This document shows positions 5,281-35,649 of a DNA stretch of 64,000 nucleotides, one piece after another. The first letter of the stretch is position 1. Each line of letters begins with the position of its first letter. The DNA is from an uncultured Acidimicrobiales bacterium (GTDB lineage: Bacteria > Actinomycetota > Acidimicrobiia > Acidimicrobiales > SZUA-35): assembly GCA_937922045.1 (NCBI GenBank), contig CAKZXA010000004.1:42878-106877 (forward strand), given 5' to 3'. A program made the position numbers and the translations under genes. The notes under the pieces were generated by a model. It had not been told where the DNA came from, made no database searches, and saw nothing but the letters and a program-made list of their open reading frames with translations.

Positions 5281-5295
5281 GGCTGGGGGGCTGGG

Positions 5296-9068: not shown

Positions 9069-9140
9069 CAGGGGTAACCCTGAGCGTAGTCAGGGGGAAT
9101 CCTCATTTCGGCCGCGGCTCGTTCATCGGATAATGAAGAC

Positions 9141-17757: not shown

Positions 17758-20700
17758 CTAGAGTTCAGAGCGTAGAGCGATGACCCTTCGGCGATAGAGC
17801 TCAATTCTCTGAAGCTTGAGGTCTTCATAGCCACGAATAGCAAGCGGAGCCTCCGCCAGCTCAGCGAGGACGGCGAGTCGTTGGGGTCCGGCGGCGTCGG
17901 CGTGAACCAGGGCCGTCTTCATGAACGCCTCATACTCGTCGACCAGCTCGCGTTCGAGCTTGCGTAGATGGTTCCGACCAAACGGATCGAGGCGCGTGCC
18001 GCGCAAGCGCTTGGCCTTGGCCAGCACGACGAAGGCCGGACTGGCGGCCGACGGCACCCGAACCTTGTTCTCGAGGCCGAGAGCCTTCAACAATGGTGGA
18101 TGGAGGTGCCAGCGAAGTTTCGTGCCCTTCGGCACCGGCAACGCGCCTTCCAGCAACATCAGTCTCGCAACCTCGTATTCGTCCTTGTACGCCATCAGCT
18201 TGTGGAACCCTCTGGCGACGCTCATAGCGAGATCGTTGTCGCCGGCGGTGAGAGCGAGATCAACAAGATCGAGGTAGCGCCCCGCGTAAGCTTCGTCCTG
18301 GTAAGCGACGAGATCTGCAACCCGAGTGGTCAAAGATCGAGCATCGTCGACGCCAAACTGGGCGCCCTCGATTGCTGCATTCGTGCGGCTCAGAAGGGCT
18401 GGGGACAAGGCTGGGGCTGCACTCGGCGCACCAGAGGATCCCGACGCCGAGGCCGAGGCGAGCACCGCCTCCACCGCCTCGCGGTCGCTGGCGTAGCGTC
18501 GGCCCCATTCCAAGGCCGCAAGGTTTGCCTCGACAGCCACACCGTTCAGCTCGATGGCCTTGCCAATCGATGCCCTATCGAGGGGTAGAAGGCCTGCCTG
18601 GAGAGCCACACCCAGCAAGCAGATATTGGCGGTCGCAGCCGATCCAACCAGATGCTGAGCAACAAGCGCTGTGTCGAACACCTCGACCGCATGGTCGGAC
18701 GCTGCGCCGAAGCGAGCTGCGTACGCTTCCATCGAATCCGCTTCCAACGTCGGGTTCACCACCTGGGCGCCGGTTGGTGGCCGTGATGCTGACGCCAGCA
18801 CCCGGGTCTGGGGGCCGACGGCGGTTAGCGCCCCATCGGCAGCCGCCACCATCTGATCGAAGGCGAGGACAACATCGGCTTGGCCCGTGCCAGCCAGATT
18901 CGACCCTGACACTGCTGACCCTGACACTGCTGATCCTGACACTGCTGATCCTGACACTGCCGACTCGGGACTGATGACAACATCGCTAACGACAGGGCCC
19001 GCTTTCTGGGAGAGACCGGTCTGGTCTAATCCAGCGACCTGGCGGCCAGCCAACATGGCCGCAGTGCTCAAGATCTGAGCCACCGTGACCACGCCGGTCC
19101 CACCGACACCGGCGAGACGGACGACCGCTCCCCCCGTACCGATCGGCGGTTCGGGGAGGGGCTCGTCGAGGAGGATCGAGCCGCCGTGGCCCAGATTGTT
19201 CACCGGGCCACCGGCGAGAGGATCAACCGCGAGATCGTCGACGTTGACGGTGACAAAAGCCGGACAATCACCGTGGAGACAGGACAGGTCGATGTTGCAG
19301 CTGGCTTGGTCGATCCGTGTCTTGCGGCCGAACTCGGTGTGCACAGGCTGCACGGAAAGGCAGCCGCTCACGTCGCCACAGTCGCCGCAGCCTTCACAAA
19401 TGCGATGGTTGATAAAGACCCGGGTCTTTGGCGTGTCGATCAGGCCACGCTTTCGATCGCGTCGCGTTTCGGCCGCACAACCTTGGTCGTTGATCAAGAT
19501 TGTTACACCATCGATGGCGGCTAGCTCTTGTTGGGCCTCAACGATGCGGGTCCGATCCATCACCGCGAGCAGTGGACGAAGGTCGTCGGGGAGGCGTAGA
19601 TTGCGGTAGCGCTCAACGTCCTCGGTGGTGATGATCACCCGCTTTGCTCCCTGCTGGAGCAAGATCGTAGCCATGGTTTGAGGCGTGACCTGATGCGAGG
19701 CATCTTGGCCTCCCGTCATGGCCACCGTGTGGTTGTAGAGGATCTTGAACGTCATTCTGGATCCAGCGCCGATGGCGGCCTGCACCGCGAGTTGCCCCGA
19801 ATGAAAGTAGGTTCCATCGCCCAGGTTCTGAACGATGTGTTCCGTCTCGACGAACGGCTCCATGCCAAGCCATTGCATGCCCTCGTTGCCCATCGCCGTG
19901 ACGCCTAGGCTGTCGCCGACACGCTCGGGATCCATGAGAAGACCCATGCCATGGCAACCGGTGCCCATGCCGACCACCGCGCCCTCATCAACCTTCATAC
20001 CCCAGCTGTGGGGGCACCCGGAGCAGAATGCGGGTGCCCGCACCACGGCTAGCGGAATCCGTTCTCTGGGCACGGGAGGCGGGGGGGCGAGCTCTTCACC
20101 GAGCAGGGGGAGCAGCTGACGACGAAGCGCCGGACTGATGACATCGGCATCAAGCCGGCCATGCGACGGTAGGAGACGCTCCCCGTCCAGATCGATCTTG
20201 CCAACGACGTCGGGCCGATGGCTATGGGTGTACAAGGCATCCCGCACCAGTCGCTCCAAGGTCGGGTTCTTTTCTTCGATGACAATGATGCGGTCCAACC
20301 CGGACGCAAACCGTCGGATGAGGCCAGCATCAAAAGGCAAGGGCATACGCAAATTCAGGAGCCGAATTCCGGCGCGGGCCACAGCAGCCTCACCCTCAAC
20401 GCCGAGGCGCCGCAAAGCTTCAACCGTTTCGCCGAAGGTGAAACCTGTGGCCAGCACGCCGAGCCGAGGACGTGGCGGATCGACAGCGATGCGGTTCAAA
20501 CCATTCTCGATGCCGTAGCGCAAGGCGAGCTCGGTACGCACCTCGTGAAATTCGCGCTCGACCTCGACCATCCTCGGACCAAGCAACTGAGCCGACGGTT
20601 GCGCCCGCCACTCAACCCCATCGATTGTGGTCGTCGGTCGAATCGGGTCGTTCAACAACACGGGCAACCCAACGGTTCCCGAGCCGTCGGCGACCGCGGT

Positions 20701-21336
20701 CACAACCTTCAACGCCGACCAAAGACCGGTCGCTCGTGACATGGCCAATCCGTGCAAGCCAAGCTCTAAACACTCCGCCACCGACGCCGGGTAAAGCACC
20801 GGCATGTGCAGATCGGCGAGCGCAGCATCCGACGATGACGGCATCGTCGACGACTTGGCCGATGGGTCATCACCGACGATGGCGAGCGCTCCTCCGGTCG
20901 CGCTTGATCCGGTGAACACCGAGTGACGCAGGGCGTCGGTTGCCCGGTCGAGGCCTGGAGCCTTGCCATACCAGATGCCGGAGATACCGTCGTAGCGGCA
21001 GTCTGGCCGGGTGGCGGCCAGCTGTGACCCCATCACAGCCGTCACCCCAAGTTCCTCGTTTACCGCTGGCAGATGGTGGATGGGAAACCCCTCACCGGCT
21101 GCTCGGATAGAGCGGGGAATTTCTTGATCCAGGCCCGCAAGTGGCGAGCCCGGGTAGCCGGAGATGAAGGCCGCTGTGTTGCGGCCGTTGGCATAGTCGA
21201 GACGCAGCTGCTCGATCGGAAGTCGAGCGAGGGCCTGAATACCGGTGAGGAACACCGTCCCCGACAGGGCTCGGTAGCGATCATCCAAGCGGTACTCGTT
21301 GGCGGGACCTGCCGATAGATCATCTCGAACACTCAT
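17758..21336 (-). CDS. Indolepyruvate ferredoxin oxidoreductase family protein (fused IorA/IorB-like 2-oxoacid:ferredoxin oxidoreductase)
   Basis: 1192 aa. The N-terminus YRLDDRYRALSGTVFLTGIQALARLPIEQ is typical of the family. It also has a TPP-binding region, the ferredoxin-type cluster CEGCGDCGDVSGC and a C-terminal IorB-like domain. Confidence 0.9.
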   Translation of the reverse strand: MSVRDDLSAGPANEYRLDDRYRALSGTVFLTGIQALARLPIEQLRLDYANGRNTAAFISGYPGSPLAGLDQEIPRSIRAAGEGFPIHHLPAVNEELGVTAVMGSQLAATRPDCRYDGISGIWYGKAPGLDRATDALRHSVFTGSSATGGALAIVGDDPSAKSSTMPSSSDAALADLHMPVLYPASVAECLELGLHGLAMSRATGLWSALKVVTAVADGSGTVGLPVLLNDPIRPTTTIDGVEWRAQPSAQLLGPRMVEVEREFHEVRTELALRYGIENGLNRIAVDPPRPRLGVLATGFTFGETVEALRRLGVEGEAAVARAGIRLLNLRMPLPFDAGLIRRFASGLDRIIVIEEKNPTLERLVRDALYTHSHRPDVVGKIDLDGERLLPSHGRLDADVISPALRRQLLPLLGEELAPPPPVPRERIPLAVVRAPAFCSGCPHSWGMKVDEGAVVGMGTGCHGMGLLMDPERVGDSLGVTAMGNEGMQWLGMEPFVETEHIVQNLGDGTYFHSGQLAVQAAIGAGSRMTFKILYNHTVAMTGGQDASHQVTPQTMATILLQQGAKRVIITTEDVERYRNLRLPDDLRPLLAVMDRTRIVEAQQELAAIDGVTILINDQGCAAETRRDRKRGLIDTPKTRVFINHRICEGCGDCGDVSGCLSVQPVHTEFGRKTRIDQASCNIDLSCLHGDCPAFVTVNVDDLAVDPLAGGPVNNLGHGGSILLDEPLPEPPIGTGGAVVRLAGVGGTGVVTVAQILSTAAMLAGRQVAGLDQTGLSQKAGPVVSDVVISPESAVSGSAVSGSAVSGSAVSGSNLAGTGQADVVLAFDQMVAAADGALTAVGPQTRVLASASRPPTGAQVVNPTLEADSMEAYAARFGAASDHAVEVFDTALVAQHLVGSAATANICLLGVALQAGLLPLDRASIGKAIELNGVAVEANLAALEWGRRYASDREAVEAVLASASASGSSGAPSAAPALSPALLSRTNAAIEGAQFGVDDARSLTTRVADLVAYQDEAYAGRYLDLVDLALTAGDNDLAMSVARGFHKLMAYKDEYEVARLMLLEGALPVPKGTKLRWHLHPPLLKALGLENKVRVPSAASPAFVVLAKAKRLRGTRLDPFGRNHLRKLERELVDEYEAFMKTALVHADAAGPQRLAVLAELAEAPLAIRGYEDLKLQRIELYRRRVIALRSEL
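18905..18964 (-). repeat. In-frame 15-bp tandem repeat (4 units) encoding (SAVSG)n in the inter-domain linker of the IOR-family gene
   Basis: Plus-strand units are cctgacactgctgac / cctgacactgctgat / cctgacactgctgat / cctgacactgccgac. The protein reads ESAVSGSAVSGSAVSGSAVSGSNLAG. Confidence 0.9.
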
Positions 21337-21390: not shown

Positions 21391-21921
21391 ATGATTTACA
21401 GTGTTAAGGCTGAATTGCTAGACTTTCTGCTTGTGGATGCCGATCTAGATGAGCTCGACAAGAAGATTATCGACGTACTGATGCGTAACGCGCGGCTCTC
21501 GATTCCAGCCCTGGCCGACGAGGTCGGCACCAGCAGGGCCACGGCCTACAACCGCTTCGATCGCCTCGTCGGTCAGGGAGTCATCACCGGCTTTCACGCC
21601 GCGGTCGATCCCGAGGCACTCGGTTCGGAGATCGCCGCCTTGACCTTGGTAAAGGCGGCCCAGCAGGGCTGGCCTTCGCTGGCGGAAGACCTGGCCGCAG
21701 TACCCGGCGTTGTCTGGCTCGGATTGAGCGTTGGCACATCGGATTTCGTTCTGCTGCTCCGAGCCCGCAGTCTTCGACATCTACGAGACTCGGTGTTGGA
21801 AGGCTTGCTCGGCATACCCGGGGTCGACAGCATCGAAACCCGAGTCCTTCTCGACGAGACCACACCGTCGGGGCTTCCCTTCGGCCAGCTATCGCCGATC
21901 GATGACGTCCGAAGTCTTTGA
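21391..21921 (+). CDS. Lrp/AsnC-family transcriptional regulator
   Basis: HTH_AsnC region LDELDKKIIDVLMRNARLSIPALADEVGTSRATAYNRFDRLVGQGVI followed by a RAM/ligand domain. The start may instead be the GTG at 21433 (VDADLDELD...). Confidence 0.85.
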   Translation: MIYSVKAELLDFLLVDADLDELDKKIIDVLMRNARLSIPALADEVGTSRATAYNRFDRLVGQGVITGFHAAVDPEALGSEIAALTLVKAAQQGWPSLAEDLAAVPGVVWLGLSVGTSDFVLLLRARSLRHLRDSVLEGLLGIPGVDSIETRVLLDETTPSGLPFGQLSPIDDVRSL

Positions 21922-21935
21922 TCTTGATCTAGCTA

Positions 21936-23906
21936 TCAGCGGCGGCGCGACCGGCGTTGCCGCCACCGCCGCAATCCTCCACCAGCACCGAGGAGCAAGA
22001 GGCCGCCGCCAACGCCGGTTATTCGGCGTTGCCCTGACCGCTCGGCCGCGTCCACCGCATCATCCAACCTGGCCGAGGCCTCGTTCATCTCGTCGAACTG
22101 ACCGGTGGTGTAAAGAGCTCGCACGAGCTGGCGGTCATGATCGAGTCCGCCTCCAGCGAGCCCGAACCTCTCAACGAGGCTCAGGCTCTGATCGACCGAG
22201 TCGAGTTCGAGGACAAGAGCACCGCTGGCCACCAGCTGCTCTCCGACCTCTGCCACGTCTTCGGCTGAGGCCGCCTGCTCGAAGGCTTGCTCCAATGCCA
22301 TCGGAACGTCGAGCTCGGCGACGACCAGGGCGTCGGCCAGGTCATCGCGTTGTTTTACCACGGCGGTGGCGGCCGACATCGCCGTCTCGGCTTGATCGAA
22401 TGACCATGTCGCCAAGGCGTTCCGTACGACGAGTGGCGGATGCCAATCACCGGCATCGGTTTGCAAGCTGCGATAGTTCTTCAGCGCTGCCTGCCTCTGC
22501 TCGTAGGACTCGTTCCATCCGCCATCGACCCAGGTCGCGACCATGTCGGCTAACGCTGCATCGGGAGCTGCCTGTTCGAAGTAGTCGAGCAGGCGGAAGG
22601 ATTCAGAACCTCCGGCTGAGGTGTCGGCCAGGTCCCCGTAGGGAGAACGTCCAGCGAGACGGGCGCGGACGGCCGAGAGGAAGGCTTCGGTTCCTATCTC
22701 TGAGCGGATCGTACGCAACAGCTGCCACGAGGCGTCGTATTCCCACGACTCAACCTCGGGGTCCTGGCTATCCCATCCAGACAAGGGCCTGGCGACCTCG
22801 TCGTCGAGCGAGACAAGGCTGGCCTCAGACGGTTCGCCATCGGCCACGGCGAGAGCTGCGAACTCGCTGGCCAGCCCTTCGATGACCCATCGATCCGACA
22901 GCGAGCGATGGTTGATCCATACGTGGGCGATCTCGTGCAGTACGGTCAGGTCGTCGATACGCGGCCCGATCACGATGAGATTCTCGTCCTCGATATACCA
23001 GCCGGCGTAGCTGCTGCCGAGAGGCACCGCCGACTCCTGGATCGTAAGCTCACGATCGGGCCAGGGCCGGTCGATGAGTTCACGCAATGATCCGAGATGA
23101 TCGTCGATCTCGCCGGTGACGTGATCCAACCACTGTTCATCCCCGGGCCAATACCGTAAGACGATGTCGGTGCCATGGGCGGTAATCGACTGTTCGACCA
23201 TGCCAGCTTCTCGTTCAAACAGCACGAAGGTGAACAGCCCGTCGGAAGCGCCGGAAGCCTCAAGGACCGTCGTCGACGTTTCTGCCCCATCGCTTCGACT
23301 GAAGGGAGACGGGTAGTCGGGCCGGCTGATCAGCTCATAGCCGTCGGGGGCTTCAATGGTGGCCTGCCACGAGTCCAGGCCACCGTCGGTGAAAACAAAC
23401 CACCCTGCGCTCGCCGGGTTAACGATTACCGCGGTTTCAGCGGATTCGAGCCTGAAGTTGGCGAGATCATCAGGCAGGGAGTATCGAGCCGTGACCGTGG
23501 TGGATTGACCGTAGAACACCCTGCTTCGGAGCTTGACGGTGACCAGATCGAACCCTTCGACATCGAAGGGGTTTCGGCGAATCGATAGCGAACCCGACCG
23601 ATCGGCTATGTCGAGCTCGACCGCAGCCGCTGGCACCACCATCTGATACTCAAAAAGATAGTACTGATAGACCCCGGCATCGGTTCGTTCATCCGGACGG
23701 GTCGCTTCAATATCGATCTCGACGACGACATCGACATCGCTACCGTCGGGATCGAGCACATAGCTGTACTCGCCATGCACACGGGCTCCGTCGTCTCCCT
23801 CCGCCTGCGCAACCGACAGAGGAGTGGGGGTAACGAGGTGCGGCACGTCCTGAACGGGAACCAGAAAAGCGAGGGCCAGCAAGAAGGTGGACATCGTCGC
23901 AGCCAA
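21936..23906 (-). CDS. Putative exported, C-terminally membrane-anchored zinc metallopeptidase (MA-clan gluzincin, M1/Peptidase_MA_2-like)
   Basis: TTG start at 23906, 5 nt after GGAGGG. Features are an N-terminal signal-like segment, HEIAHVW...RWVIEGLASEF (HExxH plus a downstream Glu in a W-x-x-EG-x-A context), a long helical C-terminal region, a final TM helix and a poly-Arg tail (GGGLLLLGAGGGLRRWRQRRSRRR). Confidence 0.5.
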   Translation of the reverse strand: MAATMSTFLLALAFLVPVQDVPHLVTPTPLSVAQAEGDDGARVHGEYSYVLDPDGSDVDVVVEIDIEATRPDERTDAGVYQYYLFEYQMVVPAAAVELDIADRSGSLSIRRNPFDVEGFDLVTVKLRSRVFYGQSTTVTARYSLPDDLANFRLESAETAVIVNPASAGWFVFTDGGLDSWQATIEAPDGYELISRPDYPSPFSRSDGAETSTTVLEASGASDGLFTFVLFEREAGMVEQSITAHGTDIVLRYWPGDEQWLDHVTGEIDDHLGSLRELIDRPWPDRELTIQESAVPLGSSYAGWYIEDENLIVIGPRIDDLTVLHEIAHVWINHRSLSDRWVIEGLASEFAALAVADGEPSEASLVSLDDEVARPLSGWDSQDPEVESWEYDASWQLLRTIRSEIGTEAFLSAVRARLAGRSPYGDLADTSAGGSESFRLLDYFEQAAPDAALADMVATWVDGGWNESYEQRQAALKNYRSLQTDAGDWHPPLVVRNALATWSFDQAETAMSAATAVVKQRDDLADALVVAELDVPMALEQAFEQAASAEDVAEVGEQLVASGALVLELDSVDQSLSLVERFGLAGGGLDHDRQLVRALYTTGQFDEMNEASARLDDAVDAAERSGQRRITGVGGGLLLLGAGGGLRRWRQRRSRRR

Positions 23907-24024: not shown

Positions 24025-24870
24025 CTACAGACCGTCGCGCAGGGCAGGCAGGTCAGGAAAGTCGGCTGGCCGCTTTTCCATCGTGGCGGCGAAGGCCTCA
24101 GTCATATCGTCGGTGTCGAACATCGCCGCGTTCCAGGTTGCGATGTAGTCGAGCGAATCAGCGACAGAATGCTCGCGGGTGAAGTGAATCGTCTGCTTGG
24201 TCCCCCACACGGCAACCGGTGCTTTTGAGGCGATTTCAGCCGCGATCTCTAGCACCCCATCGACCAAGGCCTGATGGTTGGGAAAGATCTTGTTGACGAA
24301 CCCGGCCGCCAACGCCTCTTCGGCCGACCAACGACGTCCGGTGTAAGCGAGCTCTTTCACGATGCCCTCAGCGATGAGTTTTGGCATGCGTTGCAGGGTC
24401 CCGACGTCGGCGGTCATCCCGATGTTGACCTCGGCGATACTGAAGTAGGTCGTCTCATCGGCGTATCGCATGTCGGCCGCGCTCACCATGTCGATGCCAC
24501 CACCGACGCACGCTCCCTGGATTGCGCACAGCACAGGCATCCGGGCTCGTTCAAAGGCGGTGAAGGAATCTTGGAGCTTCACGGCAGTCGATCGAAAACC
24601 TTCGTTGCGCCGGCTGCGATGCGACGACTTCTTCGATGGTCCGACGTCGCCGTTCGAGGCGAACACTTCGAGATCCATGCCGGAACTGAAATGTTTGCCT
24701 TCGGCCGATACCACCAGGGCACGGACCGTACCCGATGCCGAAAGTTCATCGACGATCATCGGCAGGTCCCGCCAGAACGACGGCACCATCGAATTGGCCT
24801 TCTCCGGTCGTGTCATCTTGAGGTGAGCGATCTTGTCTGTCACCTCGAGGTCGAAGCACTCGTATCCCAT
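24025..24870 (-). CDS. Enoyl-CoA hydratase/isomerase (crotonase) family protein
   Basis: 281 aa with ALVVSAEGKHFSSGMDL and CAIQGACVGGGIDM motifs characteristic of the crotonase fold (dienoyl-CoA-isomerase-like). Confidence 0.85.
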   Translation of the reverse strand: MGYECFDLEVTDKIAHLKMTRPEKANSMVPSFWRDLPMIVDELSASGTVRALVVSAEGKHFSSGMDLEVFASNGDVGPSKKSSHRSRRNEGFRSTAVKLQDSFTAFERARMPVLCAIQGACVGGGIDMVSAADMRYADETTYFSIAEVNIGMTADVGTLQRMPKLIAEGIVKELAYTGRRWSAEEALAAGFVNKIFPNHQALVDGVLEIAAEIASKAPVAVWGTKQTIHFTREHSVADSLDYIATWNAAMFDTDDMTEAFAATMEKRPADFPDLPALRDGL

Positions 24871-24897: not shown

Positions 24898-24927
24898 TCA
24901 GGCCTCATCAGGCCTCATCAGGCCTGA
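24898..24927. repeat. Three tandem 10-bp units built on the palindrome TCAGGCCTGA
   Basis: tcaggcctca tcaggcctca tcaggcctga, read directly, in the 65-bp gap upstream of the crotonase start. Adjacent units can pair (CAGGCC-n6-GGCCTG). Confidence 0.8.
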
Positions 24928-24935
24928 GACGACAC

Positions 24936-25115
24936 TCAGCGACGAAGCAGCGGCACCATCACGACGGCAACACCGACAAAAAACAGCACGCTGGCGACGA
25001 ACGAAAGCACGTCATCATTTCGCCACGCCACCACGGCGAAGAGGGCACAGCCAACAAGCCACATCGAGTAGCCGGAGAGGTTGAGTATCCAGTCACGTCC
25101 ACGCACGTCGACCAC
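24936..25115 (-). CDS. Possible small two-TM membrane protein
   Basis: Only the C-terminal ~55 aa of ORF 24936-25325 looks protein-like (DWILNLSGYSMWLVGCALFAVVAWRNDDVLSFVASVLFFVGVAVVMVPLLRR). The upstream part overlaps the BVMO gene. The start would be GTG at 25115 or 25106. Weak call. Confidence 0.3.
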   Translation of the reverse strand: MVDVRGRDWILNLSGYSMWLVGCALFAVVAWRNDDVLSFVASVLFFVGVAVVMVPLLRR

Positions 25116-25153: not shown

Positions 25154-26779
25154 CTACGACAGCTCGAAGCCGGGATAGCCAGCCGCTGCCGTCTCCGCAA
25201 GCTTGGCCAGGTAGCCGTCGACCAGAGGGTAGTTGAGCAGCTGCCGAGGCTTCCCCGGAACGTTCGCTCCCATGTACCAAGAGTCGGCTTGGCCGAAAAG
25301 GGTGGCAGCGGCGATGGCGTCGCAATGCTCACTCCATGCCGCGTCGGCTTCGGGCGTCGACTCAAGGCGCGTGTAGCCCTCGTCGCGCATGTGGCGAAGC
25401 GTGTCGACCACCCACTCCCCCTGCAACTCCGCACAGGTCGGCCCGTTACAGAAGGCCGTGGGACTCTGAGGCCCGTAGAGGAACAGCAGATTGGGAAAGC
25501 CAGCGGCCGCAACCCCAAGATTGAGCTGCACCCGGTCGGCCCAGTACTCAGCGAAGGACATGCCGTTTCGGCCCTCGACGCCGAGTTGGCTCAACCCGCC
25601 GGTGTTGGCGTCGAAGCCGGTAGCCAACACGATCATGTCGAGCTCGAAGCTGCGATCAGCGGTTCGGACACCGACCGGTGTGACCTCCGAAATCGGATCA
25701 GCCTTGACATCGACGAGCGCCACGTTCGGCTGGTTGAAGACGTCGTAGTAGTCCTGCTCAAGCGAGGGCCGCTTGGTCCCAAAGGGGTAGGGAGGATCGG
25801 TGGGCGCCAGCAACTCGGCGACCGCAGGATCTTGAAGACGGGCTCTGGTCTTGTCGCGCCAGAAGTCATAGGACGTTCGATTGGCTTGCTCGTTGGTCAG
25901 GATGTCGTTGAACGTGGCCGCCCAGAAGTGAAAGCCACCCCTGGCCCAGGCTTGTTCGTAGACCCGGTTCCGTTCCGCTTCGTCGACGGACATAGCCGAG
26001 ACGTTCAGCCTGATCAGGTCGGCGAAACTGCCGGGCGGCTCGTTGCGAACACGGAACATCTCGGCATAGCCGAGCTTGGCTTCATCCTGTTCCTCGACAC
26101 TCATCGTTGCCTGCTGCATGGCCAAGGCCATCACCGGTGTGCGTTGGAAGACGGTTAGTTCCGCTGCGGTCTTCGCCGCCTCCTGAACCACCTGAACACC
26201 ACTCGCTCCCGTGCCGATCACGCCAACCTTCAACCCATCGAAGGACTGGCCGCTTTGAGGCCAGCGGGCGGTGTGGTGACAGATACCCTCGAAGCGTTCC
26301 AAGCCAGGGAGGTCGGGCACGTAGGGCTTGGCCGCAAAGCCGGTGCAGACCAGCAGATGACGGGCCTCTGCGGTGACCCCCGAGCTGGTCTCGACACTCC
26401 ACCGGTTGGCGGTCTCGTCGAAACGAGCATTCTCCACTCGCGTCTCGTAGTAGATGTCAGGAGCCAAGGCCAAGACATCGACGACGTGGTGGAAGTACCG
26501 TTGCAGTTCCGGCTGGCTGGGAAAGCGCTCGGTCCAGTACCAGTCACGCCAGATCTGCTCCATCGAGAACTCGTAGTTGGGCACGTGGGAATCGACCCGA
26601 GCCCCGGGATAGCAGTTCCAATACCAGACCCCGCCGGGACCAGCCCCAGCCTCAAAGACGGCAACGGAGAAACCTTCCTGCCGTAGGCGGTAGAGCTGGT
26701 ACAGCCCGTTGAAGCCGGCGCCGACCACGGCAACATCGACCTGGCCAAGGTGCCCAGCCGGGTCCTTTCCGCTGGTCAC
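25154..26779 (-). CDS. Type I Baeyer-Villiger (flavin, NADPH-dependent) monooxygenase
   Basis: 541 aa. FAD GxGxxG (VVGAGFNG), GGVWYWNCYPGARVD, the BVMO fingerprint FxGxxxHxxxWP = FEGICHHTARWP, and a second Rossmann motif (VIGTGASG). Confidence 0.9.
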   Translation of the reverse strand: MTSGKDPAGHLGQVDVAVVGAGFNGLYQLYRLRQEGFSVAVFEAGAGPGGVWYWNCYPGARVDSHVPNYEFSMEQIWRDWYWTERFPSQPELQRYFHHVVDVLALAPDIYYETRVENARFDETANRWSVETSSGVTAEARHLLVCTGFAAKPYVPDLPGLERFEGICHHTARWPQSGQSFDGLKVGVIGTGASGVQVVQEAAKTAAELTVFQRTPVMALAMQQATMSVEEQDEAKLGYAEMFRVRNEPPGSFADLIRLNVSAMSVDEAERNRVYEQAWARGGFHFWAATFNDILTNEQANRTSYDFWRDKTRARLQDPAVAELLAPTDPPYPFGTKRPSLEQDYYDVFNQPNVALVDVKADPISEVTPVGVRTADRSFELDMIVLATGFDANTGGLSQLGVEGRNGMSFAEYWADRVQLNLGVAAAGFPNLLFLYGPQSPTAFCNGPTCAELQGEWVVDTLRHMRDEGYTRLESTPEADAAWSEHCDAIAAATLFGQADSWYMGANVPGKPRQLLNYPLVDGYLAKLAETAAAGYPGFELS

Positions 26780-27321
26780 CTGGCGCTCGGCGGTATTCGC
26801 TGCAGGAGCATGGTCGACCAGTAGACACCGTCTTTGAAACCGACCTCATCCTGAACGGCCTGGGTCGTGAAACCAACACGATGATGAAGCGCAACGCTCG
26901 CTTGATTGGGTAAAGCCACGATTGCATACTGGCGGTGCACGCCACGCCTGTCCAACTCACCGAGGAGGGCACGGTACAGGCTGCTTCCAAGCCCACGACC
27001 GGTGGCGTCGCCGTCGAGCACGATCGTCGTCTCTACCGACGAGTCGTAGGCCGCCTTCAGTCGGTATCGACTGGCCCACGACGCTCCGACAACATAACCA
27101 TCCACCTCGCAGACCCATGCGATCCAGGGATAGCCGTCGTCGCCCAAACCCTCTTCATACAGCACCCACCACTGCCGACGCTGCTCCAGGCTCCACGGTT
27201 CGGTGTCGAACGACACGTGCGAATCAACGATGTACCGGTTGTAGATCTGCGTAATCCGGGGCAGATCGTCGGCCGTTGCCGGCCGATATCTCGCCACGCC
27301 AGGCGCCGGTACTGACATCAC
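26776..27321 (-). CDS. GNAT N-acetyltransferase, phosphinothricin/methionine-sulfoximine acetyltransferase (PAT)-like
   Basis: 181 aa. ATADDLPRITQIYNRYIVDSHVSFDTEPWSLEQRRQWW, AAYDSSVETTIVL, GRGLGSSLYRALL and NQASVALHHRVGF match the PAT-subfamily pattern as I remember it. It has 4-nt overlaps with both neighbours. Confidence 0.75.
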   Translation of the reverse strand: MMSVPAPGVARYRPATADDLPRITQIYNRYIVDSHVSFDTEPWSLEQRRQWWVLYEEGLGDDGYPWIAWVCEVDGYVVGASWASRYRLKAAYDSSVETTIVLDGDATGRGLGSSLYRALLGELDRRGVHRQYAIVALPNQASVALHHRVGFTTQAVQDEVGFKDGVYWSTMLLQRIPPSAR

Positions 27322-28271
27322 GACCGTGTGCTGTCGGTGGTTTCCGGCCCCGCTGCCCCATGGCGCACGTAGGTAGACGTGAGCTCGCGACGCACGAAGT
27401 CACCGAAGACCACCGGCTCGAACCGGGCGGGCCCAGATCCCAGAGGCTCGATGCTCGTCGACATATGCGGATCGTAGAAAAAGGCGCAGGAGTAACGCTC
27501 CTCATGTGGAGGACTCACGACCCGGTGAGGGGTAGCGACCAACCGTCCATTGCTCCAGCGGTGCATCATCGAGCCGGTGTTCATCACGAAAGCCCCCTCG
27601 AGTGGCTCTATGGCCACCCATTGTCCTTCCGGCGAACGGGCCTCAAGACCGCCAACACCATCCTGGGCCAGCATCGTGATGGCTCCGAAGTCTCGGTGAG
27701 GTGCTGAACCATAGAAGCCCTCCCCCGCCGTTCGCTTGCTCGGCGGGTAGTGCAGAAGCCGGAGCCAGGTCGTCGGGCGGTCGAAGGGTTCGGCCAGCGC
27801 ATCGGCCGCGAAGCCGAGCCCGACCAGCATCAGGCCGACCAGGCGCCCGCAGAGTGCACCCATCGCCTGGTCGTACATGGTCAGGGCCGACCGAAACCCT
27901 GGCACGTCGGGCCACTGGTTCGCTCCGGCTAGGTACACGCCGTTGCGCACATCAGGATCATCCGCGCCGGCCTCGTTCATCATCATGAACGAGGCGCTCT
28001 GATTGGGCGTTGACACATCGGCCAGGGTCGAGGTTCGATCGGTCGACTCATCGATCGGGATGTAACCTCGGTGGTTGCTGTCGACGGCCACCGCCATTTT
28101 CGACTTCAACGGTTGAGCGTGGAACCGGTGGGAGGCGTCGAAGACAGCATCGACCAGGGCGGGATCGATCCCATGACCGATGATGTATCCGAAGCCGAGA
28201 CCGCTATAGGTTTCGACGAGCTGGTCGGCGACGACGGCTTCGTCACCCGAAACGTCGATGACAGGCATCAC
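27318..28271 (-). CDS. 2-oxoglutarate/Fe(II)-dependent oxygenase (isopenicillin-N-synthase-like family)
   Basis: 317 aa. MPVIDVSG...GFGYIIGHGI (DIOX_N), HRDFGAITMLAQD (HxD) and ATPHRVV...RYSCAFF (distal His, 2OG Arg). It is a paralogue type of the 4252-5280 gene. Confidence 0.8.
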   Translation of the reverse strand: MMPVIDVSGDEAVVADQLVETYSGLGFGYIIGHGIDPALVDAVFDASHRFHAQPLKSKMAVAVDSNHRGYIPIDESTDRTSTLADVSTPNQSASFMMMNEAGADDPDVRNGVYLAGANQWPDVPGFRSALTMYDQAMGALCGRLVGLMLVGLGFAADALAEPFDRPTTWLRLLHYPPSKRTAGEGFYGSAPHRDFGAITMLAQDGVGGLEARSPEGQWVAIEPLEGAFVMNTGSMMHRWSNGRLVATPHRVVSPPHEERYSCAFFYDPHMSTSIEPLGSGPARFEPVVFGDFVRRELTSTYVRHGAAGPETTDSTRS

Positions 28272-29632
28272 CGGTCGAGCGCCGCCGCGGCCGGGCGGAC
28301 CCAGCGATCGAATTCATCGAGGGCGTCATCGAGCTTGTCGATGAGCTCATCGACCTCCTCGTCGGAGGAATTGATTGGCGGTCCCACGAGGAGGTGATCG
28401 CCCTCATAGCCGCCGCGAGTTCGCCCTGGATAGAGGATCAAGCCTCGGTCATAACAGAGCTCGGCCAAAACAGTATTGGCATCGAGCTCGACAGGCAGGG
28501 GATCAAGCGACGACGGGTCAGCCACAAGTTCGAGCCCAAGCAAGGCACCCTTGCCTCGAACATGGCCAACGTTGTGATGCCGATCTCGCAGCTGTTCAAG
28601 CCCGTCCAGCAATCGATCGCCGATCGCTTCGGCTCGTCCACAAAGATCGTGCTCCACCACCTCGGCCAGAACAGCCCGGCCCGCGGCACAGGCCAATGGG
28701 TTGCCGGCATATGTGTGCCCGTGCACAAAGCCGCCCTCCTTGGCGATTGGTTCCAGAACACGATCGGACGTGATCATGGCACCCAAAGGCACGTAGCCAG
28801 CTCCTAGACCTTTCGAAACGGCGGCGACATCAGGTACGACACCCCAGTGTTCGGTAGCGAGATAGCGACCGCAGCGACCCAGCCCGGACATCACCTCGTC
28901 GGCGATGAGAAGCAAGCCGTGGCGATCGCAGATCCTCCGGATCTCGGGCAGGTAGGTTTCGGGTGGCACATTGGCCCCGGTCGACGCCCCACCGACGGGT
29001 TCCATCAGAAAGGCGAGCACGGTCTCCGGGCCCTGAGCCACAATCTCGTCCTCGAGCATCCGGGCATAGTGCAGGCCCCGGTCTTCGGCCGATAGCTCAT
29101 CGTTGTCGAGATACGCCTGGGGGGCAGGAATCTTCGGCATGACCTGGATCATTGGAGCGAAGGGATCGAGCCGTTGTTGATGACCGGTCACGGCCAATGC
29201 CCCGAATGTTGCGCCATGATACGAAGGGGCCAGGGAGATCACCTTGGTTCGATCTTCCTGGCCCATGGCGATCGCCCATTGGCGTGCCACCTTGATGCAG
29301 GCCTCGACCGCCTCGGATCCGCCCGACACGAAGAAGACTCGTTCCAGCTCACCCGGCATGACGGCTGCCAGCTCATGAGCAAGAGCTTCGGTCGTTTCGT
29401 TCACAAAGTGCATGCGGTAGGCGAAGGTGGTCGTTTCCAACTGATCGCGCATGGCCTGAAGAACTCGAGGATGGGAATGACCGATGTTCACCGCCAGAGG
29501 GCCGGATGACCCGTCGAGAAATCGCCGCCCGTCCTTGGTATAAATCATGCTGCCAACGGCGCGGTCGATGGCCGGCCGCTTCACATCATTGAGGTAGAAA
29601 AGATGGGATTCGTCGCTGACTACCACGCCCAC
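28268..29632 (-). CDS. Class-III (omega/acetylornithine-type) PLP aminotransferase
   Basis: GPLAVNIGHSHPRV, FFVSGGSEAVE, LLIADEVMSGLGRCG and AAVSKGLGAGY (PLP Lys region). The ORF extends to 29683 (TTG). GTG at 29632 or 29626 fits the conserved N-terminus better. The start is uncertain. Confidence 0.85.
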   Translation of the reverse strand: MGVVVSDESHLFYLNDVKRPAIDRAVGSMIYTKDGRRFLDGSSGPLAVNIGHSHPRVLQAMRDQLETTTFAYRMHFVNETTEALAHELAAVMPGELERVFFVSGGSEAVEACIKVARQWAIAMGQEDRTKVISLAPSYHGATFGALAVTGHQQRLDPFAPMIQVMPKIPAPQAYLDNDELSAEDRGLHYARMLEDEIVAQGPETVLAFLMEPVGGASTGANVPPETYLPEIRRICDRHGLLLIADEVMSGLGRCGRYLATEHWGVVPDVAAVSKGLGAGYVPLGAMITSDRVLEPIAKEGGFVHGHTYAGNPLACAAGRAVLAEVVEHDLCGRAEAIGDRLLDGLEQLRDRHHNVGHVRGKGALLGLELVADPSSLDPLPVELDANTVLAELCYDRGLILYPGRTRGGYEGDHLLVGPPINSSDEEVDELIDKLDDALDEFDRWVRPAAAALDR

Positions 29633-29794
29633 AAGGTAACACTCTCGCCCCACGATGGCGAAGAAGAGAAGGCCTTCAGACAAACCGGCCGAGAGGTCCG
29701 ACCGTCGCCGCGATCGTTGGCATCGAGCCGACTATCGGCCGCATGAGCGGTGGCGTTGTCTCCAACCGCAACCACTCGGCCGTCTTCGACAGCG

Positions 29795-30517
29795 CTAGCT
29801 GCCGTGTTCGGCTAGTTGCTGGCTTCGAAGCTGCAGCATGTGCCACATGAGCGCAGAGTTTGAGCTCACCACTGGCTTACCGAGGATCCGTTGTGCCTCG
29901 TCGAGCACACCCGCCGTACGCAGGTTCGTACACGAAGCGAAGACGACGTCGCACTCTTCGTGACCAACATCAAGCATCGCTTTGAGCACGGACTCGTTGC
30001 TGATCCTGGCCACGTTTGGGTCCTCGGCTTCAAAGAATGAAGCCGACGACGTGACGCTGAAGCCATCGCCTTCGAGGTTGTCGATCATCGCCTGGGACAC
30101 CTCGGGAACGTAGGGTGTCAGCAAGCCGATGCGGCGAGCATCAAGGTCATTGAGCCTGGCCTTGACGGCCGTAAGCGGATTTGTCACTGCGACGTTGGGA
30201 AGGGCTCGCCGAACCGCTGCTGCGACTTCCGCCTCGCCAATCACGGTCGCTCCCGACGTGCAGGCGTAGGCGACCGTTCCGATGTGGGCATGATGCGGAA
30301 ACAGCTCGACGGCTCGAGGAATCTCCGCTTCCATGGCGCAAAGCGTCTCGGTCGTCACCTCGGTCGCGTTGGGGACACGACTGTGAAACAGCGCTACCCC
30401 TTCCGGCAGCCAGCCTCGGAACTCCTCTTCCAGCGTCTCGTCGGTCTGCAAGACCACAAGGCCTAGTGAAGAAAAGGGTTGATGGAAGACTGCACTGGTA
30501 TAGGTGACGTGCTTCAT
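29795..30517 (-). CDS. Asp/Glu/hydantoin-racemase-fold protein (maleate isomerase / arylmalonate decarboxylase / EutA-like)
   Basis: 240 aa. GLVVLQTDETLEEEF plus the two Cys-containing loops YACTSGATV and ASCTNLRT, which are typical of this superfamily. Confidence 0.7.
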   Translation of the reverse strand: MKHVTYTSAVFHQPFSSLGLVVLQTDETLEEEFRGWLPEGVALFHSRVPNATEVTTETLCAMEAEIPRAVELFPHHAHIGTVAYACTSGATVIGEAEVAAAVRRALPNVAVTNPLTAVKARLNDLDARRIGLLTPYVPEVSQAMIDNLEGDGFSVTSSASFFEAEDPNVARISNESVLKAMLDVGHEECDVVFASCTNLRTAGVLDEAQRILGKPVVSSNSALMWHMLQLRSQQLAEHGS

Positions 30518-30526
30518 AGGATCAAA

Positions 30527-32107
30527 CTAGCCACAGAGCTCTAGCAGTGCCTTGCGAGCTCGTTCCTTGCCGACGTTGTAGGAGAGCCAGTCCGGTTGGT
30601 CGTTCAAAGAGCCGGGGCTGATGTAGCACAACTCCTCCTGAACGGTTGCCGCTAGCTCCGGTGAGAGCCGATCGAGGCCTTCGGCCATCTTGGCCGCCCC
30701 ATCGCCGTGGAACTGGCTGTAACGCACATGCCAAGCCAAAACGTCCTGGTTTCGGTCGAGGTTGTTTTCGGCCACCAGCCGTTGCGGGTTGAACAGATTC
30801 AAACCGAACAGCATGACCACCCCGACCGCTGCGATCGCGGGGAACAACCAGGCCTGTGAGAGCCGGAAACCACGGAGCCGCAGTGCAAGCAAGCCAAAGG
30901 CAGCCGCTATCCATGCGGAGACGACAAAGGCGTAGAGACGGCGGGAGGTTAGTCCGCTGTCGTCGACGTAGAACGAGATTCGCATCACGGCTACGGCCAC
31001 GATCATGAGGGTCAATCCCACCGTGACATAGCCGCCGACGCGGGCGTTGCGACTCGCCCCCGCATGGTTACGAGACAAGACCTGCAAGGTCATCACGACG
31101 CCGAGGGTGATTGCTGCTACCCAAATGAGCTGGAAGAAGCCTTGCCGTGCGAACTGTTTCTGATCGAGGCCGGCTCGGGCCAAGGCTTCATCGGCGCCAC
31201 CGACGACGGTCAGCACCTGGGCCACGGCGAAGACACTGAACAGGGCCACGATGGCCCCCAGGATGACGCCAACCTCGACCGCGCCAAAGCGACCTTCGGT
31301 CAGGGGCCGGGTTTCGGAGTGCTCAAGAGTCGAGTAGCGGAGCAGGGCAGCCATGGCGACCGCGCCGATTGCGGCCAGAAACAGGTGGACGAAGATGCCA
31401 CCTCCACCGAGATTGACCGAGGTGAAGAAGGAGCGGAAGACAACGTCGGCCGAAGCCAGAAGCAGGCCGAGGATCAAGACGATCGGGGCTGCAATGGCAA
31501 CGCCGCGGACGGCTGCCTTGCTCGATGAGTCACCGGTTTCACCCCAGGTTCGATAGCGAGCCAAGGCCTCGGCCATGCCGACGAACGGGGTCACCACCAG
31601 CTGCTCAAAGAAGAGCACGCCCTCTTTCAGCACCGATCCTGGGCCTATGTCCCACAGCCGCTGGCGGGTACCGGTTGCTGCGCCGGCAGCGAGCAAGGAG
31701 AAGGCCACCACGAAATTGAACAAGGTCAGCAAGGGGTCGGTTCGCCAGGCAATAAATCCGCCGAATAGCACGGCCAGAGCCAGCAGAATCTTGGCCGATC
31801 GCGAGCGAACAAAGCCGGAGGCCAACAGTCCTACCGCCACCACCAGAACCAGTAGTGCGGTCGCCACGTTGTTCCACGGAGGCCGGCGGAGGGCCAGGTC
31901 GGCACAAACCGCGGCCGCGAGGACAGCAGCAACCCACACGGGCTTGAGCGGCGTCGGCGCTGGAGGTTCTTCGATTCGAAGCCGCTCAGCGGGCATGGGG
32001 ACAGCTATCGCGTCTTCCGATGGCGCTGGCGGGATGGCTACCGCCACCTCGGCCGCTGGATCACTGTCGGCACCGGACTCGGGACCAGGATTCTCACTAT
32101 CGCTCAT
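30527..32107 (-). CDS. Polytopic membrane protein of unknown function (DUF4153/DUF4173-like by my recollection)
   Basis: About 10 or more predicted TM helices after a Pro/Glu-rich cytoplasmic N-terminus, then a soluble ~90-aa C-terminal tail. I chose ATG 32107 (MSDSENPG...) because it follows GAGAGGAGAG. The ORF track starts at 32164. Confidence 0.55.
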   Translation of the reverse strand: MSDSENPGPESGADSDPAAEVAVAIPPAPSEDAIAVPMPAERLRIEEPPAPTPLKPVWVAAVLAAAVCADLALRRPPWNNVATALLVLVVAVGLLASGFVRSRSAKILLALAVLFGGFIAWRTDPLLTLFNFVVAFSLLAAGAATGTRQRLWDIGPGSVLKEGVLFFEQLVVTPFVGMAEALARYRTWGETGDSSSKAAVRGVAIAAPIVLILGLLLASADVVFRSFFTSVNLGGGGIFVHLFLAAIGAVAMAALLRYSTLEHSETRPLTEGRFGAVEVGVILGAIVALFSVFAVAQVLTVVGGADEALARAGLDQKQFARQGFFQLIWVAAITLGVVMTLQVLSRNHAGASRNARVGGYVTVGLTLMIVAVAVMRISFYVDDSGLTSRRLYAFVVSAWIAAAFGLLALRLRGFRLSQAWLFPAIAAVGVVMLFGLNLFNPQRLVAENNLDRNQDVLAWHVRYSQFHGDGAAKMAEGLDRLSPELAATVQEELCYISPGSLNDQPDWLSYNVGKERARKALLELCG

Positions 32108-32209
32108 TCGGGCACTCTCCTCTCCCGAAACAGTACTGCTGATACACAGCGCGAGAAAGGGCACTCCCCCCTGATTGGGCGAATCGACCCTAGGCCTTGG
32201 TCGGAGGGG

Positions 32210-35200
32210 CTAGAGCAGGTTTCCGTAGCGGTGCATGGTCCGACTGATGGCTTGTTCCCTCAGATAGTGAAGGAGTTCCACGCGCCCCTCGTCGGTGACC
32301 GGACCATCGGCGACATGAAGACCTAGCCGGTTCGCCACTGTGTGCAGTGCCTGCTCGGTGGTTCCAACCACCCGTACTCGGTCGACATCGAGCGATTCGA
32401 GCCTGGCCGCGAAGGCGCCAGCCGTTTCAGAAGATGCGTGAGATTCCACCAGCGCAACATCACAACGTTTTGCGGCTGCTCGCACCCTCTCGATCGCTTC
32501 GCCGGTGGCGTCGGACTCGACCCTCAACGCCACCCGACGAAGGGGGCGGTAGCGCAACACGTTCGCCTCGCAGAACAAACCGGTGGGGTCATGCTCTTGA
32601 GAAAATTCTGTGTTCCAAGCATCGGCGTCACTTCGCTGGGCCGCCTCGAGGTCGATCCCATCGACCGAATGCCAGGTGCCGAGTTGGGCCACATAGTTTG
32701 GACCACCCGCTTTGGCTCCTGGGCCGATAGCCGAACGCTTCCATCCGCCAAACGGCTGCCGCTGCACGATTGCGCCGGTGATGACGCGGTTGATGTAGAC
32801 GTTGCCTACCTCGACCTTGTCCAACCAGCGGTCGACCTCGGCATCATCCAGACTGTGGATGCCACCGGTGAGTCCGAAGGAAACACCATTTTGCATCGTC
32901 AGCGCCTCGCCGAGATCGCTTGCGTGCATTACGCCGAGCACTGGCCCGAAGCACTCGGTCTGATGGAACCAGCTGCCAGCTCGCACACCAAGCTTTACGC
33001 CTGGCGTCCAGGTTCGCGGCCCGAGGCGTCGAGGTTCGACCAGCCACTCCTCTCCCGGCTCCAGCGTGCTCAACGCACGCAGCAGCTTGCCGTCCGGCTC
33101 GTGAATCGTTGGCCCAAGGTTGGTGCCCAGATCGGCGGCGTCGCCAACCTGAAGGCTGGCTACCGCATCGCTCAGCTGACGGCGAAAGCGTTCCGAGGTG
33201 TACACGTCGCCAACACAGATCGCGAGGCTCGCAGCCGAGCATTTCTGGCCAGCATGGCCGAAGGCCGAAGCGACGAGGTCGGCGACGGCCAAATCGATGT
33301 CGGCGTTCGGTGTGATCACGAGGGCGTTCTTGCCCGACGTCTCAGCGAAGATTCGAAGATCGGGCTTCCATGATCGAAACAGTTCGGCGGTTTCGTAGGC
33401 CCCGGTAAGAATAATGCCATCGACACCCTGGTGGGTTATCAGATGGCGACCGGTGTCGTTGTCGGGTACTCGCAGAAACTGGACGACATCCCGCGGCACG
33501 CCAGCGGCCCAGCAGCATTCGGCAACGATCTCCGCACACCGGGGGGTCTCAGGCGGTGGTTTCAGAATGGCGGCGTTGCCCGCCGCTATCGAGCCCATCA
33601 CACCTCCGGTGCAAATGGCGACAGGGAAGTTCCAGGGGGGCACGATGGCCATCACACCGAGCGGCTCGAAGCGGACCGTCTCGTGGCCTTCAAGCCGTTC
33701 GGCCTGGCGGCCGTAGTAGCGAGCGAAGTCGATCGCTTCGGACACCTCAGGATCGGCTTGCTCGAACGTCTTGGATGCCTCGTAAACCATGGCCGAGATC
33801 AGGTCTCCGCGCCGGCGGTTCAACTCGTCGCCAACGGCGTGCAGAATCTTCGCCCGGTCGGCGACTGAACGGGCCGCCCAGGCGGCCTGGCCGGCGCGGG
33901 CGTTGGTCACGACACTGTCCACGGTGTCCATGTCGTCGACCATGGCGGACCGGGGCGGTGTTTCTCCAACGGCCACGACCTCGGCGGCCCATTGACGGTT
34001 GGCTGGGATCGAAGGGTCGGTGTCGGGTTCGTTGACGAAGCGATCGGTTTGGCCTGGCCCATCGTCGGGCTGTTGATCATCGTGGACGAGTCGATTCTGA
34101 ACTCTTCGAGGACCGAACTCCCCCGCCCACCGCTCCTCAACCGCTACACCAAACTTGGCCGCCTCGGCCTTGAAGGCAAGGTCGCCGGGCCGCATGGCAA
34201 AGAGGTGACGGATGAAGTTCTCGTCCGCCGCGTTCTCCTCCAACCGTCGGAACAGGTAGCTGATAGCCACATCAAAGTCGGTCTCAGCAACCGCCGGCGA
34301 GTACAACAACAACTCACCGGTCGCGGCCTTGGTGACACGAGCCTGCGCCGGCGCCATGCCCTGCAACATCTCGAACGAGACCCGTTCGGCGACCTTGCGT
34401 TGTTCGCTGAGCAGGTGAGCCCAAGCCACGTCGAAGAGGTTGTGAGAGGCAACACCAATACGGACCGAGCCCAACCGGTCAGGCGTCATCACCCAGTCGA
34501 GACACCGCTTGTAGTTCGCATCGGTTGCGGCCTTTGATGTGTACGGCGCTTGAGGCCAGCCAGCGATAGCGGCCTCGACCTTCTCCATGGCAAGGTTGGC
34601 TCCCTTCACCAGCCTCACCTTGATGACACCCCCGGAATACCCGTCGACCTGGCGGTCGCCGCGCTCGTTCGCCCACGCCACCAACTGCTGGAGTGCCTCC
34701 AGCGAGTCGGGTAGATAAGCCTGGATGACGATGCCAGCATCGACTCGATGAAATTCGGGCTCGTCGAGCAGGGCCATGAAGGCTGTCATGGTCAACTCCA
34801 GGTCGTGGTACTCCTCCATGTCTAGGTTGATGAAGGTGCGAGGCGAGGTTGCCGCCGCCTTTCTGAACAAGGGGCGGAGGCGATCGATGACCCGTTGCAC
34901 CGACGTGGCGTAGTCCCAATAGTTGAGCTGCGACACCACGGCCGATGTCTTTACCGACACATAGTCGACGTCGGGCTGGTCGAGCAGTGTCATTGCTTCG
35001 CGGTGCCTTCGATCGGCCTCGGCCTCCCCCAACACCGCTTCACCCAGCAGGTTGACGTTGAGTCCGAAACCCTCGCCGCGCCGCGACGAGAGGTAGCGAC
35101 CCATCGCTTCCTGCTCGGCGTCGATGACGAGGTGTTTCACCATGCCGCGCATTCGCCGGACAGCCAGCGGGATGACGATTCCCGGCAAGACCGGGGCCAG

Positions 35201-35539: not shown

Positions 35540-35649
35540 AGGTCAAGGCTGTCATGGCCCCAGCTTGCGGTATTGCACGATTCGGCCGGTTACACCGTCA
35601 GATCAGGCCAAACTGGGGCGGCTACAGGTGCTGATACCATCGGCTGATA

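Follow-up and report, generated by a model that had tools for sequence, protein, structure and literature searches.

A coupled transaminase, 2-oxoglutarate oxygenase, acetyltransferase and Baeyer-Villiger monooxygenase block in an uncultured Acidimicrobiales bacterium: a candidate lineage-specific accessory operon

Genes packed so tightly that their stop and start codons overlap invite the question of whether their products serve one pathway, and this question is raised by four enzyme genes on contig CAKZXA010000004.1 of an uncultured Acidimicrobiales bacterium. The window, by which we mean the whole 64,000-nt stretch of this contig that was analysed, carries the block at 25154-29653 (called starts) on the minus strand, as it does all flanking genes described below unless stated otherwise. 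In order of transcription the block encodes a class-III omega-transaminase, a 2-oxoglutarate (2OG)/Fe(II) oxygenase, a GNAT acetyltransferase and a type I Baeyer-Villiger monooxygenase (BVMO). Profile searches confirm all four family assignments, which had been made in an earlier note on this DNA, and the catalytic motifs are intact in all four enzymes. We propose, with a probability of about 0.5, that the block is a lineage-specific accessory operon for the catabolism or detoxification of an amino-acid-like amine or keto compound. The arrangement is new in that it is unseen elsewhere in the data searched, and its parts are ordinary members of families that are well known.

The open-reading-frame list places the genes at 28268-29683, 27318-28271, 26776-27321 and 25154-26779, in agreement with the positions given in the earlier note. 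That note also described a 4-nt overlap at every junction, and a 4-nt stop/start overlap is indeed possible at three of three. Two of them, the transaminase/oxygenase and oxygenase/GNAT junctions, read GTGATG and so allow either a 4-nt overlap with a GTG start or a 1-nt overlap with an ATG 3 nt downstream; the ATG is the start preferred by gene callers on near-identical contigs. Because stop/start overlaps occur at all junctions, the block is very probably a genuine operon, co-transcribed and translationally coupled as had been proposed, though such overlaps are frequent here, being allowed at 8 of the 32 same-strand junctions in the window. The three consecutive overlapping junctions form the longest run of this kind in the window, a run that is not extraordinary. 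A terminator scan found no strong terminator-like site between the block genes and fewer candidates than in shuffled sequence, the single candidate within the block being a weak 5-pair stem at 27502-27488. When promoters were scanned for together with terminators, nothing rose above the shuffled background except one weak hairpin, which lies at 29704-29686 in the spacer. The operon possibly continues into a small membrane open reading frame (ORF) and a crotonase gene downstream. As a test for recent foreign origin we compared GC content, GC content at third codon positions (GC3) and codon-usage distance, by which the block is indistinguishable from its neighbours and from the rest of the window. 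A search around the block for direct or inverted repeats and for signatures of mobile elements gave nothing convincing, and a megablast search of the region against a plasmid collection gave no match.

The first gene (28268-29653) encodes a class-III omega-type pyridoxal phosphate-dependent aminotransferase (PF00202, E = 9e-97), whose membership in the class is reflected in the catalytic Schiff-base Lys281 within SKGLG and Asp252 within ADEVM. Its start is uncertain, falling anywhere from about 29620 to 29683, and gene callers give the protein 461 amino acids (aa) on contig L001 and 454 aa on contig L089. The best NCBIfam match is PRK07483, at 428 bits under a cut-off of 485; in this search no named equivalog cut-off was reached (EctB, ArgD, GabT, BioA, SpuC-like and others), and no Ect model appeared among the best 25 matches. 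The closest solved structure is 3i4j, followed by the omega- and putrescine-transaminases 6s54, 5lh9, 6io1 and 6gwi. With the class-III amine:pyruvate and omega-transaminases (5lh9, 6io1, 6gwi, 4a6t) the block enzyme shares the fold family, the catalytic lysine and a full-length alignment, but it is at most 57% identical to any genome-encoded relative and fits none of the equivalogs of that class. Among 80 loci, taken from one genome per GTDB species, the best non-self relatives are those of Rhodovulum, Pararhodobacter and Hoeflea at 57% identity. Two relatives at 55-57% identity were inspected, and both lie in uptake and catabolic clusters: one beside a polyamine-type ATP-binding cassette (ABC) transporter and a histone-deacetylase-family gene, which we read as an acetylpolyamine amidohydrolase, and the other with an ABC transporter, a CoA-transferase and an M20 peptidase.

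The last gene of the block (25154-26779) encodes a 541-aa protein that we assign to the type I BVMOs by its motifs and by its homology to enzymes with demonstrated activity. The BVMO fingerprint FxGxxxHxxxW[P/D] is intact (FEGICHHTARWP, at residue 163), the second motif [A/G]GxWxxxx[F/Y]P[G/M]xxxD reads GGVWYWNCYPGARVD at residue 49, and GxGxxG motifs at residues 20 (GAGFNG), 45 and 189 (GTGASG) correspond to the Rossmann motifs for flavin adenine dinucleotide and NADPH. The match to structure 6JDK, which we take to be the Parvibaculum lavamentivorans enzyme, has an E value of 1e-222 and 59% identity over 527 aa. Full-length matches extend to the structures of PAMO, steroid monooxygenase, CHMO and OTEMO (1e-139 to 1e-116), and 5j7x (deposited as 'dimethylaniline monooxygenase, putative') and 6y48 are further solved relatives. 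The best non-self relatives, at 64-67% identity, were examined in three contexts. At L005 the neighbours are an alpha/beta hydrolase and a CoA-transferase, at L006 they are glutamine-synthetase-like genes, and at L007 (65% identical) they are a CoA-transferase, an enoyl-CoA hydratase and an acyl-CoA dehydrogenase. The surroundings at L005 and L007 look typical of ketone or acyl-CoA catabolism. What sets the block enzyme apart from known BVMOs is that genes for a GNAT, a 2OG oxygenase and a transaminase precede its own, an arrangement seen for no homologue examined, and that no esterase or lactonase gene is adjacent.

The third gene (26776-27318) encodes a GNAT N-acetyltransferase that NCBIfam and PDB matches place with the enzymes acting on phosphinothricin (PPT), methionine sulfoximine (MSO) and arsinothricin. 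It scores 123.7 bits with ArsN1b (cut-off 210), 107.4 bits with PPT acetyltransferase (300) and 77.6 bits with ArsN1a (170), and thus stays under all three equivalog cut-offs. Profile and structure-sequence searches put BAR/PAT (5t7d), PA4866, YncA/MddA and ArsN1 in the same GNAT subfamily. The best solved structure is BAR 5t7d (5e-23), and in the alignment to it the block protein reads R-x-K-x-x-Y-D-x-x-x-E-x-T against K-x-R-x-x-Y-D-x-x-x-E-x-T in BAR, and LHH against MHE, retaining the positions of the BAR Glu and His and of the basic and Tyr residues. In BAR the Glu and His are catalytic, and the Lys, Arg and Tyr contact the substrate. In its architecture the GNAT appears to resemble enzymes whose acetylation targets are amino acids of the glutamate or methionine kind, and a detoxification step, which the earlier note had suggested, stays plausible. 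A very unlikely extension of this idea is that the block is a small biosynthetic cluster for a non-proteinogenic glutamate- or methionine-analogue antimetabolite, in which the GNAT would confer self-resistance as pat and bar do for phosphinothricin. The BAR-like active-site positions in a protein of the PAT/ArsN1/MSO-acetyltransferase type would suit such a role, and transaminases, 2OG oxygenases and flavin monooxygenases are common tailoring enzymes. However, the scaffold-forming enzymes to be expected (phosphoenolpyruvate mutase, radical-SAM, nonribosomal peptide synthetase or ATP-grasp) are absent from the block and its flanks, as is an exporter, and in contrast to the phosphinothricin and arsinothricin systems no biosynthesis genes for either compound lie near the GNAT. 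The shortfall against every equivalog cut-off also counts against this proposal, and PAT-like GNATs are widespread as stand-alone housekeeping or detoxifying genes: the closest homologues of the block GNAT (best 58% identity) stand alone, with no cluster partner at 19 of 19 metagenome loci.

The second gene (27318-28268) encodes a 2OG/Fe(II) oxygenase of the bacterial branch that resembles PaIPNS and the ethylene-forming enzyme (EFE), with matches to PF14226 (9e-19) and PF03171 (1e-22) and none in NCBIfam. The iron ligands H191-x-D193 and H248 and the 2OG-binding R258-x-S260 are present, as expected for a protein with DIOX_N and 2OG-FeII_Oxy domains. Its closest structures are 9OVH (4e-42) and 6JYV (6e-38), which are the reconstructed ancestor Anc357 and the Pseudomonas aeruginosa 'IPNS-like' protein PaIPNS, respectively (PMC12329707). 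PaIPNS binds 2OG and shows uncoupled 2OG turnover only, without a known substrate, and PaIPNS-like proteins lack EFE activity (PMC12329707). The 2-His-1-carboxylate and RxS 2OG-binding motifs are common to PaIPNS, Anc357 and the block oxygenase. We also considered EFE proper and rejected it, as true EFE structures (5v2t and others) give a weak, partial match, over residues 43-215 only and at about 3e-18, and the best matches are PaIPNS-like. An exact look-up found the ATG-start form of the protein on record (P0001) and not the GTG-start form. At E <= 1e-20 the oxygenase has 1,562 relatives, of which one copy is 99% identical and the next best are 58-59% identical. Homologues at 55-59% identity were inspected at three loci (L003, L004 and L114), where their neighbours are unrelated to the block.

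Two further observations concern this family. The 57-59% identical homologues at L003 (10001-14196) and L004 (10001-14355), two large contigs unrelated to each other, adjoin class-V aminotransferase and gamma-glutamyltranspeptidase genes, possibly a conserved association that would hint at the true substrate class of the family. The window also holds a second DIOX_N/2OG oxygenase at 4252-5280, previously remarked on as a paralogue beside a Rieske-GltS fusion. Its presence there stands, but it is not a recent duplicate, as an identity of 29% to the block oxygenase makes it a distant relative. It is convergent (4081-6909) with the gene for the 537-aa fusion, which joins a Rieske [2Fe-2S] domain to a glutamate-synthase flavin mononucleotide domain, and upstream lies an ABC transporter whose binding protein is of the Bmp/PnrA type.

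Could the block nevertheless be a version of something already known? A class-III transaminase, a GNAT and a 2OG oxygenase superficially recall EctB, EctA and EctD, and the trio of transaminase, acetyltransferase and flavin monooxygenase recalls RhbA, RhbD and RhbE. The ectABCD, eutABCDE and doe clusters likewise bring the first three families together, and a gene with the EutA fold lies next door to the block in the window. A variant of ectoine or hydroxyectoine synthesis, of ectoine catabolism (eut/doe) or of a rhizobactin-type diamine route is still the most improbable of the readings we considered. The block oxygenase and GNAT belong to other subfamilies than their ectoine counterparts, the oxygenase being of the DIOX_N/IPNS type, unlike EctD, which is a member of the PhyH family. 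There is no EctC-like gene, nor room for one among overlapping genes, and no Ect or Rhb model is found among the best NCBIfam matches. As for ectoine use, the EutA-like protein reaches 160 bits against a cut-off of 318, belongs to another unit and is separated from the block in a strain variant described below; eutBCDE and doe genes are absent from the neighbourhood. The rhizobactin comparison fails in that the monooxygenase is a full-size BVMO (541 aa) and not an N-hydroxylating Lys/Orn monooxygenase, and in that no IucA/IucC synthetase is present. We therefore regard all three variants as largely refuted for want of their defining features, which bears out the previous remark that the combination fits no characterised pathway. 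A literature search for the four-enzyme combination returned nothing.

We favor a catabolic or detoxifying role because relatives of the transaminase and of the BVMO sit in catabolic clusters and the GNAT is PAT-like. In such a role, the transaminase would interconvert a primary amine and a carbonyl, and the BVMO would insert oxygen beside a ketone, after which the resulting ester or lactone could be cleaved. The oxygenase would hydroxylate an unactivated carbon, and the PAT-type GNAT would N-acetylate a glutamate- or methionine-like analogue at its alpha-amino group. Products might feed CoA-dependent steps by way of the downstream crotonase. A more specific and unlikely version is that the four genes form an undescribed short pathway, recent in one actinobacterial-like lineage, either for amine-ketone-ester catabolism of a hydroxylated, N-acetylated marine or soil metabolite or for synthesis of an antimetabolite with the GNAT as self-protection. 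If the four enzymes do act on one compound, they would constitute a new small-molecule route and would give the PaIPNS-like 2OG oxygenases, a family whose natural substrates are unknown, their first physiological context (PMC12329707). For the present, the main value of the block is that of a modest candidate for enzyme discovery, with motifs intact in its omega-transaminase and its BVMO.

If the enzymes cooperate, their genes might be expected to travel together, and the comparative data do not bear this out. At loci anchored on non-self homologues we scored co-occurrence when a stretch of 8-10 kb held two or more of the four families, searching every fetched locus with all cluster proteins (tblastn, E <= 1e-8). 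No locus qualified, whether anchored on the transaminase (0 of 80 GTDB genome loci), the GNAT (0 of 19 metagenome loci), the oxygenase (0 of 3 contexts) or the BVMO (0 of 3 contexts), and the sole cluster-protein matches near non-self anchors were occasional crotonases. The intact block was found only in five independent contigs from several samples, each matching the window at about 99% identity (L001, L002, L089, taken from a 608-kb contig, L090 and L091); their accession numbers suggest a single study. In the data searched the block thus appears restricted to one sparsely sampled bacterial population. Even for the neighboring EutA-like gene, relatives reach 71% identity at most. The whole lineage is thinly sampled, and this makes the absence of the block elsewhere weaker evidence than it seems.

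Several points weigh against our proposal. No pair of the four families occurs together, even at the family level, in about 106 non-self loci, made up of 80 genome loci, 19 metagenome loci and 7 contexts inspected one by one, and functional coupling is for this reason unsupported by the sequence comparisons. The earlier note had spoken of a self-contained route, a claim that needs co-conservation, and none was found with the four genes as anchors; it had itself named a gene order unconserved outside this genome as grounds for abandoning the idea, and that is the situation seen with all four. Overlapping junctions are common in this genome, and tight packing alone is no proof of a shared pathway. 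The operon contains no esterase or lactonase to partner the BVMO, and it has no transporter or regulator of its own, as the nearby AsnC-type regulator faces a different gene (IOR-like, see below) and the AraC-type regulator faces the PutA-like gene. Finally, the nearest structural relatives of the oxygenase, 9OVH and 6JYV, are themselves without a known substrate (PMC12329707).

The main rival is a doubtful but possible explanation in which the block is an operon of convenience, that is, unrelated accessory genes brought head to tail in a compact, rearrangement-prone region and sharing a transcript without sharing a pathway. The lack of any pairwise co-occurrence at the other loci examined fits this explanation, as do the homologues of each gene that lie singly in unrelated contexts, the recent rearrangement and deletion at the locus, and the frequency of 4-nt overlaps in the genome. 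It accounts less well for three consecutive coupled junctions, the longest run in the window, and for a block that is intact in all five population contigs. Moreover, the amine/ketone theme of the transaminase and BVMO is compatible with the amino-acid theme of the GNAT and 2OG oxygenase.

The rearrangement just mentioned concerns the genes upstream of the block. Immediately upstream lies the EutA/arylmalonate-decarboxylase-fold gene (29795-30517; PF17645), whose product has both Cys86 and Cys196, scores 159.7 bits with TIGR02990 and matches maleate isomerase 2xec at 1.5e-14. A 9-nt spacer separates it from the gene for a DUF4153 polytopic membrane protein (30527-32107; PF13687, E = 1.8e-54; 526 aa on L088, L089 and L090). 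The first gene of this upstream unit encodes a PutA-like proline dehydrogenase/aldehyde dehydrogenase fusion (32210-35539; PF01619 and PF00171), which reaches 382 bits with the PutA model NF008869, under a cut-off of 747, and an AraC/PAS regulator (35650-36414; PF12833 and PF08448) is divergent from it. Between the EutA-like gene and the transaminase, the spacer is filled by the remnant of a truncated amidohydrolase-like gene (29623-29802), recognised by a tblastn match to residues 31-90 of a 90-aa ORF on L001 at 90% identity. This spacer also contains a strain-variable deletion junction at about 29789/29790.

The junction becomes apparent from two contigs of one sample. Contig L088 is 99.3% identical to window positions 40517-29790. 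The two part precisely where the EutA-like gene has its stop codon, and beyond that point L088 carries hutU (880 bits against a cut-off of 375) and hutF (555 bits against 362). Contig L001 matches the window from 29789 downward only, and its first 99 nt encode a C-terminus (GVPHVAEG...DGRP*) that continues the ...VIIDG end of hutF on L088; the hutF stop is GTGA-coupled to the 90-aa ORF, which is followed by the transaminase. The variant is thus read from two abutting contigs that were assembled separately, L088 (10729-13898) and L001 (1-368), and has the order EutA-like gene, hutU, hutF, 90-aa truncated ORF, transaminase. The window form equals the variant minus about 3.3 kb, and keeps codons 31-90 of the remnant. 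The first 55 or so residues of the 90-aa ORF match the amidohydrolase 3hpa weakly (E = 0.036), and the ORF loses recognisable sequence just before the transaminase start. We considered whether it might be hutI and rejected this, as the 3hpa match stands alone, with no NCBIfam or Pfam match, and we call the ORF amidohydrolase-like.

The most parsimonious history consistent with these contigs would have two steps. A hutU-hutF-amidohydrolase run would originally have followed the EutA-like gene until a rearrangement brought in the transaminase block and cut the amidohydrolase gene short. In the strain of the window, the loss of about 3.3 kb would then have removed hutU and hutF, by that time useless, and joined the EutA-like gene to the transaminase. 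The locus would thus be an example of operon decay, with one gene truncated and the genes upstream of it then lost in some strains. Because hutU, hutF and the truncated gene intervene in a variant that is 99.3% identical, we judge the adjacency of the EutA-like and DUF4153 genes to the block to be accidental, both genes appearing to belong to an AraC-controlled PutA-like/DUF4153/EutA-like unit. Their positions, the two cysteines and the 9-nt gap are as previously described; the functional tie to the block suggested by their proximity does not hold. The EutA-like protein is also unlikely to be EutA proper, with the TIGR02990 cut-off of 318 bits out of reach and no PALP, OCD or M24 gene in the neighbourhood. 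The unit itself (29795-36414), which hutU and hutF extend in the variant strain, might serve a compound related to proline or imidazole by a route not yet described; the two EutA-like homologues inspected elsewhere (L111 and L112) lack this context.

Downstream of the block, the tiny membrane protein and the crotonase reported before were both found. The hydrophobic 59-aa ORF (24936-25115) starts 38 nt past the BVMO gene, has no family match on record and may be on the same transcript; gene callers give it 59 aa on L001, L002 and L090 and 56 aa on L089. The crotonase/enoyl-CoA hydratase family protein (24025-24870) matches PF00378 (E = 6e-41) and scores 329 bits with NF004794 (PRK06142), above the cut-off of 308. 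At L007 the 65% identical BVMO gene likewise has an enoyl-CoA hydratase gene after it, along with one for an acyl-CoA dehydrogenase. The spacer between the two contains a short tandem repeat on the minus strand, GGCCTGATGA, in about 2.5 copies (24905-24930).

The next gene (21936-23894) encodes a 652-aa protein with no Pfam or NCBIfam match, which has a hydrophobic N-terminus and a HEIAH...WVIEG motif like that of gluzincin metallopeptidases; towards the C-terminus a second hydrophobic stretch precedes an Arg-rich tail. These features suggest that it is probably a membrane-anchored secreted peptidase. Beyond it, an AsnC/Lrp-type regulator (21391-21921) is divergent from a minus-strand gene (17758-21336) for a 1192-aa indolepyruvate/2-oxoacid:ferredoxin-oxidoreductase-like (IOR-like) protein, which has POR and DUF6537 domains and a low-complexity (SGSAV)n insertion; the probable target of the regulator is this gene and not the four-gene block. 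The IOR-like gene and the crotonase gene share a perfect 17-nt inverted repeat within the regions that encode their N-termini, with TGGCGGGACCTGCCGAT at 21300-21316 and ATCGGCAGGTCCCGCCA at 24758-24774; by a rough estimate about 0.01 such matches would be expected by chance in 10.5 kb. Elsewhere in the window (7731-10618), a histidine kinase with a PspC domain has another PspC-domain protein as its partner, which together with the start codons and base composition would suggest an actinobacterial, possibly Acidimicrobiia-like, source. GTG and TTG starts are frequent, and the GC content is about 62%.

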